Shown here: positions 4,373 through 40,215 of the stretch, one piece after another
Position numbering within the stretch: position 1 is the first letter of the stretch
Layout: each line of letters begins with the position of its first letter
Sequence record: OL780484.1
Length of the DNA: 64,000 nucleotides
Origin: Escherichia phage vB_EcoM-E33
Strand: one strand, 5' to 3'
Program-made: the position numbers and the translations under genes
Notes under the pieces: generated by a model
The model's input: the letters and a program-made list of their open reading frames with translations, nothing else
What the model was told of the DNA's origin: nothing
The model's database searches: none

Positions 4373-5037
4373 TAATATAATCTCTTATAGTAATATAAAG
4401 GAATCGTGCCGTTAACTGTACCACCTGCTAACGATTGGGTAGAGTTACCTAAGTATTCCCACTTACCGTATCCAGCCCTTGGCTGTTGGACTATAGTATG
4501 GGAAATTGTACAACCCGATTGTTTATATGGTGAAAAAATATGATTCTGATAGTCATTGTATTTAATATTCAAGGTAGATTGGTCTAAGGCATCAATAGCA
4601 GTTTCGGCCAAAATATAGCTATTAGCAATAGCGTCTAAAAACACATCATTTACTTTAGATGCAACCAATACAGATGAATCGCCAACTAAGACCTCTACAG
4701 GAAGTCCGAACACTTTAATAATAACCGGGTCGCCAAGTTCACCGCCTGAAGAAATAGAACCGGTAAATGTAATTTTATCAGATTGCTGGATAAATCCAGG
4801 TGCTCTGTTTTCTGTGGTAATAATAACAGAGTTCACAGGAAGCTCTGTTCTAAATGCAATATCATCTATTGCACTTTGGACCGTAGGAAAATAAACACCC
4901 TTCTGAGTTTGGTTTGCAGAAGGACCACCGATAGGACGTTGGTCAGCGACAGCAGTAGGCTTGTCACTAGTGTAAGATAATTCCAAATAATCGGCTAAGC
5001 GGGATTTTAGCCCGCTTTTCATTTCAGTTAAAGTCAT
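4372..5037 (-). CDS. 11: baseplate wedge/short-fibre attachment protein gp11
   Basis: 221 aa; size and position between gp10 and gp12; SRLADYL and FGLPV motifs resemble T4 gp11. Confidence 0.8.
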   Translation of the reverse strand: MTLTEMKSGLKSRLADYLELSYTSDKPTAVADQRPIGGPSANQTQKGVYFPTVQSAIDDIAFRTELPVNSVIITTENRAPGFIQQSDKITFTGSISSGGELGDPVIIKVFGLPVEVLVGDSSVLVASKVNDVFLDAIANSYILAETAIDALDQSTLNIKYNDYQNHIFSPYKQSGCTISHTIVQQPRAGYGKWEYLGNSTQSLAGGTVNGTIPLYYYKRLY

Positions 5038-6848
5038 TATGCAATCCTCATCCAGCGATGAACAGTTAAGTATGGTGGTAGAGTATTAACCGGGATAGGA
5101 GTGGTTCCTTGAGCCTTATTAATACTGGCTTTATCTTCACGATATTTTGTATAAGCCGGTCCTTGTGAATCAGGGTCAACTAAACACCCACCTACAAAAA
5201 TAGGGCCATCGTTATCAGCAATAAGGACTTTATCATCGGTATTAAGTTCAGGGATATTCTCATATTTCAAATTAGCCACATGAGCGCCACCAGTACCGCC
5301 AGCAGTTGACTGTGGAATACCGGCAGAATCCAGATCGTTGTTATTTGCATTAAACAAAGAACTAGCGTCAGGAGACCAACCTACCAAGAACACATCAGAT
5401 AAACGCTTCCATGAACCAAAGCCCATATAAGTTTTAGGGTTATTAGGGTTCACCGTATTCTCATAGATGGTTCCTATTGGATAAACCAAATCAAAAAACG
5501 TTGCTGCTGTATCTATTGTAATATTGGACGCGGCGACCGGTTCAACGTTAGGTGCAAAAGGATTGTCTACATCAGTGATACGAACTTGACCTGTTATATC
5601 GATAGAAGGCCCTTTAGAAATATAGATGTTGTTGGTATAATCCAAAATCTCATCAATTTCCATGGTGGTACCGATATCATTATTGTACCAAATTACTGTA
5701 AGAATATCGCCGTGTTCAAAGTTACGTCCAAATTCAATAGATTCAATCTTGTCTTCAGGAGTCAAATTAAAAATATAATCTGATTTAGATTGGGTCCATT
5801 GACCACCAGCATTAAAACACTCGGTAGCAGTACGACCATCAGCACCTTCACAATAAAACGAAGGAAGTCCTGCTGTACCGGCTTGATGAAGTAATGTGCT
5901 ATTAAGCATGACTTGACAAGCATTTGGGTTGATAGGACTGTTAACAGAAATATTCAAATCAGCGGCTGATATAACATGCGAAGTATTCAAATCGGCTACG
6001 AAGGAAGAACCAGGAACAGAAACGTTTTTAGTCAATTCTGAACTTTGGATTGTTATATCACGGCGGTTATAAGAACTACGCCATTGGGCAAGTCCGTCAT
6101 TATATGATTTGATAATAACAGTATCACCTGCTTCACAAGGATATTTTAAACGGATGTCCTTACCATTCAAAGCTACCAATTCGCCCGGTTGAGCACCTGG
6201 AGAACCGAACTCTGCGGTAGCGGCATCAAAAATATCATCAACACCGTAGAACAAATTGTTACCACGTTGTGAAACGCTTAAACTCGCTACGTTATAAGAA
6301 AGCCCTGGGAAAATGTCTAGAAAATCTGTTTGGCCTTCAGTGGCAATAAACTGCTTAGTTGCTACAGTAGCGAGGTCGTTATTTGGAATACGGTTTACTT
6401 GCTTGTTCTCGACATATTCCCAACGTCCTGGGGCGCAATAAACTAATTCAAGGTCAGAGAAGTTGCGAGCAATTTCTACTTGAGTAGCTGAACCCTTAAT
6501 GGTATCACCCGTGGCAGGGATTAGGGTTACCGGGTTAGCTTGCCATGAAGAATACACGTCGCGTACACGGATAACAAAGTTATATTCTTCAGGAGAGCCT
6601 TTAGGAAGCTGAACGTTAATACGCCCACCTTGAGTATTAAGGGTATAGCTATGACCCATTACAGCGTTCAACAAAGCACCATCTGCAGTAGAATGCTGTT
6701 TCCAAGCGCCTGCTGCATGAGGGTTGTTGCCATCACCTAATTGGTAATAAAGCTCATTGAAGTTGTTATTAATTTTAAGACCACCTGCACGCAGGTAATC
6801 ACCGGACCCGTCATCAACAGCGGAACCTACTTTTAAGTCTTGTTTCAT
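5037..6848 (-). CDS. 10: baseplate wedge protein gp10
   Basis: 603 aa; MKQDLKVGSAVDDGSGDYLR..., ELVYCAPGRWEYV, YENTVNPNNPKTYMGFGSWK, C-terminal YTKYRE..VHRWMRIA match T4 gp10. Confidence 0.9.
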   Translation of the reverse strand: MKQDLKVGSAVDDGSGDYLRAGGLKINNNFNELYYQLGDGNNPHAAGAWKQHSTADGALLNAVMGHSYTLNTQGGRINVQLPKGSPEEYNFVIRVRDVYSSWQANPVTLIPATGDTIKGSATQVEIARNFSDLELVYCAPGRWEYVENKQVNRIPNNDLATVATKQFIATEGQTDFLDIFPGLSYNVASLSVSQRGNNLFYGVDDIFDAATAEFGSPGAQPGELVALNGKDIRLKYPCEAGDTVIIKSYNDGLAQWRSSYNRRDITIQSSELTKNVSVPGSSFVADLNTSHVISAADLNISVNSPINPNACQVMLNSTLLHQAGTAGLPSFYCEGADGRTATECFNAGGQWTQSKSDYIFNLTPEDKIESIEFGRNFEHGDILTVIWYNNDIGTTMEIDEILDYTNNIYISKGPSIDITGQVRITDVDNPFAPNVEPVAASNITIDTAATFFDLVYPIGTIYENTVNPNNPKTYMGFGSWKRLSDVFLVGWSPDASSLFNANNNDLDSAGIPQSTAGGTGGAHVANLKYENIPELNTDDKVLIADNDGPIFVGGCLVDPDSQGPAYTKYREDKASINKAQGTTPIPVNTLPPYLTVHRWMRIA

Positions 6849-32941: not shown

Positions 32942-33383
32942 GAAAGCTAAGGAATTATCGGCAGGTATTTTGTTCATGACCGTTGATAAAGAACTAGTTA
33001 TGGGTCGTGTAACAGGCTCTCGTAATCCAGAGAATATGCGTCATAAATGGGACATTCCTAAGGGTCATGTCGAACCAGGCGAAGAGCCTATTCAAGCGGC
33101 AATGCGCGAAACCGAAGAAGAGATTGGATTCACAGCATACGATCCTGCGTTCCTGAAAGACCTAGGTGAGTTCAAATATTCAAGCAATAAGAATCTACAT
33201 CTGTTCTTATATACAGTGCCTGTGGAACACGAGCAGTTCAAGGATTGCAAATGTACGGCTTACCATACGTTCCCTGATGGTCGTACTATTCCTGAATTCG
33301 ATGCTTTTGCCTTGATTAAACGGCCACAATGGGAATATGTCATGGGCCCGTCGATGTTTAAGGTTTTGGATTCACTCTTTTGA
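32934..33383 (+). CDS. nudE: Nudix hydrolase (NudE-like)
   Basis: Nudix box GHVEPGEEPIQAAMRETEEEIGF; ATG 32934 overlaps the previous stop (ATGAGTAA); ORF-track start 32829 would be a 35-aa extension. Confidence 0.85.
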   Translation: MSKKAKELSAGILFMTVDKELVMGRVTGSRNPENMRHKWDIPKGHVEPGEEPIQAAMRETEEEIGFTAYDPAFLKDLGEFKYSSNKNLHLFLYTVPVEHEQFKDCKCTAYHTFPDGRTIPEFDAFALIKRPQWEYVMGPSMFKVLDSLF

Positions 33384-36891: not shown

Positions 36892-37100
36892 TGAAAATTG
36901 AAAGTTTACAAGATTTCCAGCGTATCATCGGTGAAGCCTGTACTGGCTACCACAAATACTTGCTTGACGACCAAATGGCTTGTCTCGAAGAAGGTGAAGT
37001 ACAGTATGCAGCCCAACGCCTTGAACAAGTGAAAGAGTTTTACCCTGTACTGGTAGAAATTTGTTCAGCTGCTGGAAAACTTACCCCATTCCAAGAATAA
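36891..37100 (+). CDS. hypothetical protein
   Basis: ATG 36891 overlaps the upstream stop (ATGA); ORF-track start 36849. Confidence 0.5.
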   Translation: MKIESLQDFQRIIGEACTGYHKYLLDDQMACLEEGEVQYAAQRLEQVKEFYPVLVEICSAAGKLTPFQE

Positions 37101-37104
37101 AGCA

Positions 37105-37133
37105 GTTTACATCTCCTGTAGACGTGGTACTAT
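37105..37133 (+). promoter_or_regulatory. early promoter inside stem-loop
   Basis: GTTTAC 37105-37110, 17 nt, TACTAT 37128-37133; same arms atctcctgtag / ctacaggagat as the 34294 cassette. Confidence 0.6.
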
Positions 37134-37161
37134 AGACCTATCAACTACAGGAGATTACAAA

Positions 37162-37620
37162 ATGTCAGAAATTAATTCAGAAGTATTCATCCGCCGCAAT
37201 AAATTACGTCGTCAGTTCGAAACCGAATTCCGTGAACTGAATACGTCCATCAAAAAAGCCGCCATCAAGAGCGGAGTCCCAGCCTTCTTTATTAAGTACT
37301 CTAATCACTTGTTGGACCGTGCTATCCAACGTGAAATCGACGAAAAATACGTTTTTGCTTTATTCAAGCAACTCCATAACCATGTTAAAGAAATTCATGA
37401 ATTTTTAATCCAGGAACCTCTACCTGATGTAGAATCCGAAATTGTCCCTGGTAAAGTGTATCGTCCATTGCGTCTCGAAATTACCGATAAAACCTTATGG
37501 CTAGGTATGACAGTAGACCGTAAACATCCTGATAAAGGATATTCCCTTAAATGTCGTATGGCATTTGTTAACTCTAAACGTTTAGAAGGTAAAACCAGCA
37601 CGAAAGTAATCTATCTTTAA
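37162..37620 (+). CDS. hypothetical protein
   Basis: SD aggag inside the hairpin 3' arm, then ATG; 152 aa. Confidence 0.55.
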   Translation: MSEINSEVFIRRNKLRRQFETEFRELNTSIKKAAIKSGVPAFFIKYSNHLLDRAIQREIDEKYVFALFKQLHNHVKEIHEFLIQEPLPDVESEIVPGKVYRPLRLEITDKTLWLGMTVDRKHPDKGYSLKCRMAFVNSKRLEGKTSTKVIYL

Positions 37621-37632
37621 TAATGAGGTCTC

Positions 37633-38172
37633 ATGAAAAAAGTATTAGCCACTTTACTATTGACAGTTAGTATGTCTGCCCATAGCGTAGAGCCTACTTT
37701 CAGTAATGAACAACTCGATAATTTACATTATGCGTATGCTTTCGGTGAACAATACCAAAAGTCGGGAAAGTTCAAAGAAAACCCTAATCAAAAAGGATTA
37801 GGATATATTATGGCCGGATTACTATGGCAGGAATCATCTGCCGGAATTAATCAGGGTTTAAATAAAGATAAGCACCATGCTTATGGCATGTTCCAAAATT
37901 ACTTGCCTACGTTAAGAAGTCGTGTTCAACAGGTAGGTTGGAAGATGTCTGACAAAGAAATAATTCGTATGGTCCAAAAACGACAGAACAGTGCCTCTTG
38001 GGCCTACATTGAACTGTCTTATTGGATTGATGTTCACAAAGGTGACCTGAGAAAAGCGATTGCTTCTTATAATGCGGGCTGGAACGCCAAAGCAGGCAGT
38101 AAATATGCTTCTGAAGTTCTAGAAAAGGCCAATTACCTAAAATCTAAAAAGATGTTTGAGGCGGTGTATTAA
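37633..38172 (+). CDS. secreted lytic-transglycosylase-like protein
   Basis: Signal peptide MKKVLATLLLTVSMSAHS; SLT-like motifs LLWQESSAG, AYGMFQ, ASYNAG. Confidence 0.6.
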   Translation: MKKVLATLLLTVSMSAHSVEPTFSNEQLDNLHYAYAFGEQYQKSGKFKENPNQKGLGYIMAGLLWQESSAGINQGLNKDKHHAYGMFQNYLPTLRSRVQQVGWKMSDKEIIRMVQKRQNSASWAYIELSYWIDVHKGDLRKAIASYNAGWNAKAGSKYASEVLEKANYLKSKKMFEAVY

Positions 38173-38529
38173 ATGATTAAGCAGATGACTATAGCGCTTA
38201 TGTTGATTGCTCCGGGAGTATTAGCGTCACAAGTTGGTGATAGTAATAATTCAATTGTCGAGTATGCTACCCGTACAGCAAAAGATTATTGTCATCCGAG
38301 TAATACTGAATGCATTATCGAATTCAGTTCAAAAATCACAGCTGCTTTTAAAGATGGGCAGAACGACGTAGAGCATCGTCGAATGAAAGAGAAAACTCTT
38401 TCTAAAAGATACGAGCAACGTCTAAACGTTACTGAATGTATTCCATCTGATAAAAAGTACAAAGAAATGTGCGCGTCTATGGTAGACAGACTCGTTGACT
38501 CTTACAACCGAGGATTAAACTCTAAATGA
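38173..38529 (+). CDS. small secreted Cys-containing protein
   Basis: Signal peptide MIKQMTIALMLIAPGVLAS; four Cys; ATG one nt after the upstream stop. Confidence 0.5.
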   Translation: MIKQMTIALMLIAPGVLASQVGDSNNSIVEYATRTAKDYCHPSNTECIIEFSSKITAAFKDGQNDVEHRRMKEKTLSKRYEQRLNVTECIPSDKKYKEMCASMVDRLVDSYNRGLNSK

Positions 38530-38993
38530 TTATTGATTATATTAAGGGCGATATTGTCGCCCTATTTCTTCAAGGTAATAATGTTGCACACGGGTGCAAC
38601 TGTTTCCACACAATGGGTTCAGGTGTAGCTGGACAATTAGCTAAGGCTTATCCGCCTATTCTCGCTATCGATAAAACTACTTATTTAGGTAATTTGGCAA
38701 AACTTGGCACGTTTACTCAAGCCACAGGTAATAATGGCCAAATTTGCTATAATTTATATACCCAATACGAACCAGGCCCTAATCTTGATTATGGTGCTTT
38801 AGTAAACTGTATGATAGAATTAAATCAACAAGCAAAAGGTCTTTTGTTTAAACCAAGAATTTATATCCCTCGCATTGGTTGTGGTATTGCTGGTGGTGAT
38901 TGGGACAAGGTTTATCAATTGATTAATTTGTTTACTCCTGATATTAATTTAGTGGTGGTAGATTATGAAAGCCCATTACCCGCATCCGTTTGA
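38526..38993 (+). CDS. macro-domain protein (ADP-ribose binding/hydrolase fold)
   Basis: GNNVAHGCNCFHTMGSGVAGQL and IPRIGCGIAGGDWDKV match the two macro-domain signature blocks (N-x6-GxGVA and P-x-IG-x-GI-x-G); ATGA overlap with upstream gene. Confidence 0.65.
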   Translation: MIIDYIKGDIVALFLQGNNVAHGCNCFHTMGSGVAGQLAKAYPPILAIDKTTYLGNLAKLGTFTQATGNNGQICYNLYTQYEPGPNLDYGALVNCMIELNQQAKGLLFKPRIYIPRIGCGIAGGDWDKVYQLINLFTPDINLVVVDYESPLPASV

Positions 38994-39177
38994 CCCTAAA
39001 AACAAAGCGGAAATTATTCGACGCTGGACCGAAACACGAGTAACTAAATGCCCTATAAAAAGTCAACACAACACCGATAAATGGTATATTGGTGAATATG
39101 TTGAGTATACTTTTATAGATAAAAATAAACGTAAACAGCATGTAGAAGAATATTGCTTAAAGGTGCAATGGTTATGA
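38965..39177 (+). CDS. hypothetical protein
   Basis: 70 aa; overlaps the macro-domain gene end by 29 nt; its stop overlaps the next ATG (ATGA). Confidence 0.45.
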   Translation: MKAHYPHPFDPKNKAEIIRRWTETRVTKCPIKSQHNTDKWYIGEYVEYTFIDKNKRKQHVEEYCLKVQWL

Positions 39178-39347
39178 GTCTGAGTAAAGAACAGAAAGAT
39201 AAATTGTTTGAGCTTATCCATGAGCTTATGGAACTCAACATAGAATGTGAATTTGATAACTCTCTGGATTGGGATTGGAGAGGTGGTGAAGAGGATGAGT
39301 TTTCTAAAAAGGAAAATGAATTAATTGCTTATGTAAATAGTCTTTAA
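39174..39347 (+). CDS. small acidic hypothetical protein
   Basis: ATG 39174 (MSLSKEQ...); ORF-track start 39153. Confidence 0.5.
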   Translation: MSLSKEQKDKLFELIHELMELNIECEFDNSLDWDWRGGEEDEFSKKENELIAYVNSL

Positions 39348-39356
39348 GAAGGTAAT

Positions 39357-39929
39357 ATGGCTCAACTTTATTTTCATTATGCGGCGATGAATTCCGGGAA
39401 AACCGCTTCATTGCTAACGGCAGCTCATAACTACAAAGAACGTGGTATGGGCGTACTCCTTTTAAAGCCTGCGATAGACAATAGAGAATCAAGCCATAGC
39501 ATTTCGTCTCGTATAGGGATTAGTCAAGAGGCTAATGCCGTGACTCCGGATATGGACCTATACGAGTTCTATCGTTGGGCTGAATCTCAAAAAGATATCC
39601 ACTGCGTATTTGTGGATGAAGCACAGTTCTTAGAACCTGCACAGATAAAACAACTGGCAAAGATAGTAGACAATTATAATGTTCCGGTTATGTGCTATGG
39701 GCTAAGAACTGATTTTCAGGGTAAACTGTTTCCTGGCTCTGCTGAATTACTCGCTACGGCAGATAAACTCGTTGAGTACAAAGGTGTGTGCCATTGTGGC
39801 CGTAAAGCTACTATGACTGCTAGGGTCCAGGATGGTATCGCAATTAAGGACGGCGCCCAAGTTTCTATAGGTGGCAACGATTCTTACGTGTCATTGTGCA
39901 GGAAGCACTGGATAGAAATAACGAGTTGA
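39357..39929 (+). CDS. tk: thymidine kinase
   Basis: 190 aa; YAAMNSGKTASLLTAAHNYKERGM, DIHCVFVDEAQFL, VSLCRKHW match T4 Tk. Confidence 0.93.
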   Translation: MAQLYFHYAAMNSGKTASLLTAAHNYKERGMGVLLLKPAIDNRESSHSISSRIGISQEANAVTPDMDLYEFYRWAESQKDIHCVFVDEAQFLEPAQIKQLAKIVDNYNVPVMCYGLRTDFQGKLFPGSAELLATADKLVEYKGVCHCGRKATMTARVQDGIAIKDGAQVSIGGNDSYVSLCRKHWIEITS

Positions 39930-39936
39930 GGGTATT

Positions 39937-40215
39937 ATGGACCTAAATTCAAAGATTTTAATTCTAGCGTTCGCTGTGGCTATTTCTTATATTGTTCTTT
40001 CGCCTATCATGGATGATGTGGCTTACAAAAGAGAGATAGAGGTTGTAGCAGCGACGTATAATGCTAATAATAAAGAGTGTCCTAATAAAAACGGGATGGA
40101 TTTAATTAAAGCGCATTATATGCTTTCCATTACCTCGCCTATACAGAGGAATTGGGTTGAATATAATTTTAACGACGTGTTCTATTCTTATTGTCGTAAG
40201 CTTAAAAAGCTATAA
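39937..40215 (+). CDS. membrane-anchored hypothetical protein
   Basis: N-terminal hydrophobic helix ILILAFAVAISYIVLSPI; 92 aa. Confidence 0.5.
   Translation: MDLNSKILILAFAVAISYIVLSPIMDDVAYKREIEVVAATYNANNKECPNKNGMDLIKAHYMLSITSPIQRNWVEYNFNDVFYSYCRKLKKL

Follow-up and report, generated by a model that had tools for sequence, protein, structure and literature searches.

The tk.4 gene of a Dhakavirus phage encodes a glutamine-type macro domain that probably counters DarTG2

Identity of the gene and phenotype of its T4 ortholog

The DNA analysed here (the window) is a stretch of 64,000 nucleotides (nt) from Escherichia phage vB_EcoM-E33 (record OL780484.1). At positions 38526..38993 on the + strand, stop codon included, it carries a gene for a 155-amino-acid (aa) stand-alone macro domain, recognised from its open reading frame (ORF), a match to the Pfam Macro family and a match to T4 Tk.4. 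Judged from its sequence and surroundings, the gene is the Dhakavirus ortholog of T4 tk.4 (adfM), and its product is probably a hydrolase that removes ADP-ribose (ADPr) from thymidine in DNA and so counters the DarTG2 system. Its T4 counterpart already has a name and a genetic characterisation, and a sequence identical to it has been deposited.

The window protein matches T4 Tk.4 over residues 1-151 of 155, with 53% identity and 73% positives (E 8e-63). It is 100% identical to a product of Escherichia phage QL01, which RefSeq labels as a 'phosphatase'. In phage Bp7 the gene is annotated as tk.4, 'similar to bacteriophage T4 Tk.4', and the T4 RefSeq record states that tk.4 'contains A1pp phosphatase motif'. 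The surrounding 2.9 kb share 99.4% identity with QL01 and 96-98% with Bp7, IME08 and further Dhakavirus phages (Tevenvirinae), and the gene order regB, vs.1, vs, tk.4, tk.3, tk.2, tk is common to the window, Bp7, QL01 and T4, to which T4 adds tk.1. An earlier reading of the DNA made without database searches (the sequence-only reading) had not recognised the gene as T4 tk.4. The tk.4 family is very common in phages: tblastn matched it in 2733 of 50,697 phage records, and in 1018 the match was at E<1e-40. In a published survey, 41% of myoviruses had macro domains. The Tk.4 protein has been detected in the proteome of T2-infected cells.

The sequence-only reading suggested that the protein could reverse ADP-ribosylation by DarT-like toxins, and the genetics of the T4 ortholog support this. 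According to the HIDEN-SEQ preprint (November 2025, 10.1101/2025.11.20.689424), a T4 transposon library was screened on E. coli expressing DarTG2 and tk.4 was the single significant hit, while a clean tk.4 knockout sensitised T4 specifically to DarTG2. The authors renamed the gene adfM, for anti-DarT factor Macrodomain. The removal of ADPr from DNA by T4 AdfM was inferred by them and not assayed.

Macro fold and active site

Sequence, profile and predicted fold all bear out the proposal that the protein is a macro domain. Both macro motif strings named in the sequence-only reading are present in the tk.4 translation. Pfam Macro (PF01661) matches with 33.4 bits (gathering score 22) and E 4.9e-8, over model positions 2-117 of 118. 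A profile built from 57 homologs and compared with solved macro domains matched BT1257 (1e-19), TARG1 (3e-18) and SCO6735 (1e-16), and more weakly Poa1p (2e-14), M. tuberculosis DarG (1e-11) and T. aquaticus DarG (3e-10). The AlphaFold2 model, with a mean predicted local distance difference test score of 94.7 and a predicted template modelling score of 0.89, has the three-layer alpha/beta/alpha macro fold, and its top match in Foldseek is human TARG1/OARD1 (template modelling scores 0.77/0.85). Its sole low-confidence part is the C-terminal tail ESPLPASV, which is the stretch overlapped by tk.3. The macro fold is given both by the profile search and by AlphaFold2, and residues N25, Q80, G118 and G120 are conserved on alignment. 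The protein belongs to the ALC1-like macro class, as it is named in the SCO6735 paper (PMC9411070).

Conservation was assessed on 103 aligned relatives, 56 from phages or metagenomes and 47 from bacteria. Residues H22, G23, N25, Q80, G118, G120 and W126 are invariant in all of them. The first three lie in the AHGCNC motif (residues 21-26; 38586..38603, + strand), and the last three in the diphosphate-binding loop PRIGCGIAGGDW (residues 115-126; 38868..38903, + strand). Gln80 (codon at 38763..38765, + strand) falls at the catalytic position in profile, hhalign and MAFFT alignments. It aligns with TARG1 K84 and with the Gln of the MIGQ motif of BT1257 in the profile alignment, with K78 of PhiKZ gp104 by hhalign (probability 96.5%), and, when aligned jointly by MAFFT, with the FPTK Lys (DarG K80) of the M. 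tuberculosis and T. aquaticus DarG proteins; the same column holds Gln85 of SCO6735. The column of TARG1 D125 is occupied by A122, so that the TARG1 dyad Lys84/Asp125 is not kept.

SCO6735 has Gln85 where the others have Lys. Its Q85A mutant has no activity and N27S almost none, and it has been proposed that the Gln places the distal ribose so that an activated water can attack it (PMC9411070). The same study shows that SCO6735 cleaves thymidine-ADPr and not guanosine-ADPr, and that it rescues cells from DarT. N25 of the window protein is equivalent to N27 of SCO6735 (chain numbering offset by 20) and to N23 of PhiKZ gp104, the residues mutagenised in PMC9411070 and PMC13309987 respectively. 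G118 and G120 correspond to G126 and G128 of SCO6735. On these alignments, Gln80 and N25 reproduce the SCO6735 arrangement.

Proposed function

We propose the following mechanism. The gene is part of the run regB-vs.1-vs-tk.4-tk.3-tk.2-tk, all on one strand, and its start overlaps the stop of vs. In a host that carries DarTG2, DarT2 would ADP-ribosylate thymidine (within TNTC motifs) in single-stranded phage DNA and block its replication. The macro domain would bind the ADPr by means of its conserved Gly-rich loops G31-G33 and G118-G124 and would hydrolyse the thymine-ribose bond, which would make the DNA replicable again. Catalysis would probably be of the SCO6735 type, in which Asn25 holds Gln80 and Gln80 positions the distal ribose for attack by water, replacing the Lys of DarG and TARG1. 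Hydrolase activity on thymidine-ADPr in DNA and a Gln-based mechanism are inferred, and the function may transfer from T4 to its 53%-identical ortholog.

Several observations weigh against this proposal. The main uncertainty is that the support from T4 is genetic, comes from one preprint, and concerns an ortholog that is only 53% identical, and whose diphosphate loop reads GAGIGKGNW instead of the GCGIAGGDW of the window protein. In the literature searched for AdfM and Tk.4, no enzymatic study of any Tk.4-type protein was found. The catalytic Lys of DarG and TARG1 is absent. A mobile loop about 5 residues longer than in DarG/TARG1, the stated hallmark of the subclass to which SCO6735 belongs, is missing, and Lys34, which positions DNA in SCO6735, is Ser32 in the window protein and Ala in most relatives; because of these last two differences the SCO6735 mechanism may not transfer fully. 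Finally, a single-query search near the best 80 bacterial relatives found no DarT partner, and such relatives sometimes lie beside NAD-salvage, ARH and NADAR genes (where NAD is nicotinamide adenine dinucleotide). A broader or different ADP-ribose substrate would account for this just as well.

Comparison with characterised macro domains

The nearest comparison is with T4 Tk.4 itself. The two proteins are alike in their length of 155 aa, in the place of the gene between vs and tk.3, in the ATGA overlap with vs, in the residues H22/N25/Q80/G118/G120 and in a 20-nt hairpin in codons 7-13. They differ in the overlap with tk.3 (4 nt in T4, 29 nt in the window) and in the genus of the phage, Tequatrovirus for T4 and Dhakavirus for the window. 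The Tequatrovirus loop GAGIGKGNW is derived with respect to the family consensus GCGIAGGDW, which is kept in the window phage, and some Tequatrovirus alleles have Lys for the conserved G31 (TMKAG). The experimentally studied T4 Tk.4 is thus the atypical family member at these positions.

The window protein shares with the SCO6735/Bt_1257 subclass (PMC9411070) both the Gln at the catalytic position and the positioning Asn, although its identity to these proteins is only about 25-29%. Compared with the family profile, BT1257 has six additional residues following the Gln. In the window protein the loop is as long as in TARG1, and bacterial relatives of the Tk.4 family lie in between (+3). SCO6735 K89 is within this length-variable loop and could not be aligned. 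The window protein is not a plain member of the SCO6735/Bt_1257 subclass. TARG1/OARD1 has the same loop length after the catalytic position and the same PRIGCG motif as the window protein, and differs in having K84/D125 for Q80/A122 and Ser in the N25 column.

Both SCO6735 and TARG1 also hydrolyse Glu/Asp-linked ADP-ribose on protein. The window protein might on this model erase ADP-ribose from protein or RNA, either the marks made by the phage enzymes Alt, ModA and ModB or those of host defences and toxins that ADP-ribosylate RNA or protein. In DNA-virus genomes, macro domains tend to co-occur with further domains that process ADPr (NADAR, SLOG and Nudix). T4 Alt, ModA and ModB modify arginine, a linkage that ARH-type enzymes remove and that this macro class is not known to cleave, which counts against such a role. 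SCO6735, moreover, strongly prefers DNA to protein, and no phenotype supports a protein or RNA substrate. We consider this explanation quite unlikely, although the AdfN paper (PMC11825919) speculates that erasers may counter other defences that ADP-ribosylate DNA or RNA.

AdfN itself, the product of T4 gene 30.3, acts against DarTG1 (PMC11825919) and resembles the window protein in strategy, as a phage-borne protein that takes ADP-ribose off DNA, in imitation of the enzymatic component of a toxin-antitoxin defence. It has an unrelated NADAR fold and a guanosine-ADPr substrate, and its gene is at another locus, outside the window.

The DarG2 antitoxin (M. tuberculosis 5M3I, T. aquaticus 5M31/5M3E, T. 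africanus DarTG 7OMU) has Lys80 in place of Gln80, a C-terminal DarT-binding domain that has no counterpart in the 155-aa window protein, and an adjacent DarT gene, where the window has vs and tk.3 as neighbours. The PADLOC DarG model gives the window protein 25 bits, over positions 3-142 of 329 (the macro part), compared with 36 bits for T4 Tk.4 and 133 for PhiKZ gp104. These differences are relevant to the idea that the window protein neutralises DarT2 chiefly by binding and inhibiting the toxin rather than by hydrolysis. The catalytically dead mutants SCO6735 Q85A, DarG K80A and TARG1 K84A all inhibit DarT in vitro, SCO6735 most strongly (PMC9411070). We nevertheless regard inhibition by binding as the chief mode of action as highly improbable: the DarT-binding domain is missing, the strict conservation of the active site argues for catalysis, and binding would be toxin-specific, yet the family spans very different hosts.

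PhiKZ gp104 (Cell Rep 2026, PMC13309987) counters DarTG2 and strips ADP-ribose made by DarT2 from a TNTC oligonucleotide, and its N23A mutant has lowered activity. The protein is imported into the phage nucleus. Like the window protein it is a phage-borne, free-standing macro domain with the conserved Asn (N23, equivalent to N25), but the two are only 20% identical and gp104 has FPTK, including the Lys. It is DarG-like, matching M. tuberculosis DarG with E 9e-25, whereas the window protein matches the same chain with E 3e-4. Tk.4-type AdfM and gp104 are therefore separate lineages of one class with different catalytic residues. The one name AdfM has thus been given to two distinct phage macro proteins, the Gln-type T4 Tk.4 and the Lys-type, DarG-like gp104, of which only gp104 has been assayed biochemically.

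The 'phosphatase' label of the RefSeq entry is probably misleading. It rests on similarity of the Poa1p type, and over its first 42 residues the protein does have its best alignment with Poa1p. This would suit an enzyme acting on metabolites, either an ADP-ribose-1''-phosphate phosphatase (like Poa1p) or an O-acetyl-ADP-ribose deacetylase, which would clean up small derivatives or serve NAD salvage and would not act on DNA. The Poa1p residues compared were H23, S30 and F152, chosen from the titles of PDB entries (H23A, S30A, F152A). H23 is kept as H22 and S30 is conservatively replaced by T29 (Thr in 36 of 56 relatives), but F152 corresponds to A122 and is not kept. The annotations are labels transferred with the domain and not the result of assays, and the only known phenotype of the T4 ortholog is specific to DarTG2. 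T4-type RNA repair (polynucleotide kinase plus ligase) is not known to make Appr>p, which also counts against this explanation. A metabolite enzyme in place of a DNA eraser is therefore unlikely, while such an activity could coexist with DNA de-ADP-ribosylation.

The second suggestion of the sequence-only reading was that the protein destroys or sequesters immune signals derived from ADP-ribose, for example the gcADPR or His-ADPR of Thoeris. The closest structures are de-ADP-ribosylating ALC1-like hydrolases and not signal binders, and the strict conservation of the residues at the catalytic position speaks for an enzyme and against a sponge. No experimental link to such signals was found. The T4 screen ties tk.4 to DarTG2, and the passages of the preprint that were consulted name no Thoeris condition. 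We rate this function as very unlikely, and hydrolysis of thymidine-ADPr in DNA remains the preferred explanation.

Bacterial and distant phage relatives

A scan of one bacterial genome per species gave at least 498 relatives, and the genes next to the best 80 of these were analysed. These 80 share 32-43% identity with the window protein, represent a wide range of phyla, and are for the most part free-standing proteins of about 150 aa. No DarT was detected by tblastn within 4 kb of these 80, using the single P. aeruginosa DarT2 query from PMC13309987, and within the window this query had no match at E<=1 either. For each locus the ORF on either side was scanned, and DarT is not among the 25 most frequent neighbour families, by Pfam or PADLOC. 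The idea that the gene is a captured DarG antitoxin was accordingly set aside, on a limited test (one query and the top 25 families, for the best 80 of at least 498 relatives).

Among the 137 flanking products, the commonest Pfam families are ADP-ribosylglycohydrolase (5), NADAR (4), NAPRTase (3), NAMPT (2) and NAD synthase (2), and a few unrelated families occur at like counts. Within the limits of these tests, the nearest relatives in cells are free-standing enzymes and not DarG antitoxins, and they are sometimes found beside genes of ADP-ribose or NAD metabolism. A free-standing ancestry does not contradict a role against DarT2, because SCO6735 is also free-standing and yet removes DarT marks, but it would also allow a broader range of substrates. 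Of 82 neighbours scanned around distant phage homologs, some are DnaB-type helicase (4), thymidine kinase (3), Nudix (3), NAMPT (2), NMNAT-like cytidylyltransferase (2) and a Prs-like enzyme (pyrophosphokinase; 1). The neighbours hint at a link to NAD salvage or ADP-ribose recycling in some lineages.

At six alphaproteobacterial loci (five in Hyphomicrobiaceae, one in Jannaschia) the macro homolog is directly downstream of a class I tRNA synthetase. A link between this synthetase and vs, the 'valyl-tRNA synthetase modifier' gene next to tk.4, was considered and rejected: the enzyme is isoleucyl-tRNA synthetase and not valyl-tRNA synthetase (ValRS), and the arrangement is therefore a lineage-specific housekeeping synteny.

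The Gln-type family has the motif HGCNC...NxYTQ...G[CA]G[IL]AGGDW. Tk.4 could be the phage branch of a large, uncharacterised Gln-type macro family and not a captured DarG, in which case it might be a generalist, lysine-free eraser with a range beyond DarTG2, distinct from DarG, TARG1 and PhiKZ AdfM, and possibly with its expression tuned by the hairpin described below. We put this combined view forward only tentatively.

Neighbouring genes and start signals

The conserved run of genes begins with regB (37162..37620, + strand; Pfam REGB_T4, E 6e-69, and synteny). It is followed by the vs.1 ortholog (37633..38172, + strand; PHROG 600, E 4e-67, and the Bp7 annotation), which matches the Pfam SLT transglycosylase family weakly and below threshold (E 0.0077), and by the vs ortholog directly upstream of tk.4 (38173..38529, + strand; PHROG 1256, E 3e-34, and the annotation of Bp7, QL01 and T4). 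Downstream is the tk.3 ortholog (38965..39177, + strand; Pfam DUF7202, E 2.5e-37, positions 1-70 of 70, and ORF), whose start overlaps the final 29 nt of tk.4 (38965-38993) out of frame. The run ends with tk, encoding thymidine kinase (39357..39929, + strand; ORF and the annotation of QL01 and Bp7). Minus-strand ORFs that overlap tk.4, such as one of 65 aa at 38944-39141, were set aside, since the plus-strand genes account for the region.

The tk.4 ORF was placed exactly in the sequence-only reading: the ORF list of the window gives 155 codons on the + strand with an ATG start. That reading also described tk.4 as translationally coupled by ATGA to two upstream genes with signal peptides. The start codon of tk.4 does overlap the stop codon of vs in an ATGA (38526..38529, + strand), and T4 has the identical 4-nt overlap (vs 5387-5734 and tk.4 4923-5390 in the T4 stretch L002). 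The description does not hold for vs.1 and vs, whose junction is TAAATG, with no overlap; in the T4 stretch, vs is at 5387-5734 and vs.1 at 5727-6272, both on the minus strand. Signal-peptide-like N-termini were indeed seen, by eye, on the products of both vs.1 and vs. In T4 too, Vs begins with such a segment, and it has four Cys in both phages, again judged by eye; an exported Vs would fit poorly with its textbook role as a cytoplasmic modifier of ValRS.

A GAGGA sequence within the end of vs, 11 nt before the tk.4 ATG (38510..38514, + strand), is a putative Shine-Dalgarno sequence for tk.4, and CGAGGATT is kept in T4 and Bp7. Around tk.4, the number of promoter-like sites (15, with 12.4 expected from shuffling) and of terminator-like sites (5, with 3.3 expected) is not above expectation, and the scan was uninformative except in that it flagged the hairpin.

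The sequence-only reading had also pointed to the nearby Nudix hydrolase gene nudE. The spacing of about 5 kb is correct, as nudE ends at 33383, 5.1 kb upstream of tk.4. A functional cluster of the two genes was rejected, since denV, ipIII, e and other genes are located between them, in what is an ordinary conserved T4-type gene order.

A conserved hairpin within tk.4

Codons 7-13 of tk.4 (KGDIVAL) contain a hairpin, AGGGCGAT-ATT-GTCGCCCT (38545..38563, + strand), which is followed by a T-rich stretch and was flagged as terminator-like. It has a GC-rich stem of 8 bp and a 3-nt loop, with a local minimum free energy of about -13 kcal/mol. The 20 nt of the hairpin, AAGGGCGATATTGTCGCCCT, are identical in T4, despite the protein identity of 53% and differing synonymous sites in the flanks.

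Codon usage was compared over the first 50 codons in 13 distinct phage sequences, with Tk.4 proteins 52-100% identical to the window protein. All five codons with their third base in the stem (AAG, GGC, GAT, GTC, GCC) are invariant as codons, compared with 5 of the 24 other degenerate codons whose amino acid is invariant (Fisher one-sided p = 0.002). The loop codon (ATT/ATC) and the Leu codon immediately after the stem (CTA/CTT/CTG/CTC) vary freely. A 45%-identical homolog with EGDLISL (L116) has AGGGAGAT-TTA-ATCTCCCT at the same codons, where a compensatory change of C:G to A:T keeps the stem. Lineages with KGDIVK at this position have no hairpin.

A search of positions 37000-40000 against Rfam gave two sub-threshold, chance matches to eukaryotic families only, and the hairpin corresponds to no described RNA family. 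The presence of a DarT2 target (TNTC) in the hairpin was considered and rejected: the window has TGTC, which is lost in QL01-type sequences (ATCGTC) and is not conserved. As guesses, the hairpin might act as a weak terminator or attenuator that separates vs from tk.4, as a stabiliser of the 3' end of the upstream transcript, or as a translational element.

Implications

T4-like phages outside Tequatrovirus retain the tk.4/adfM macro domain. Resistance to systems of the DarTG2 type is therefore probably widespread in the subfamily, and this matters when the host range of therapeutic T4-like phages is to be predicted for E. coli that carry DarTG.

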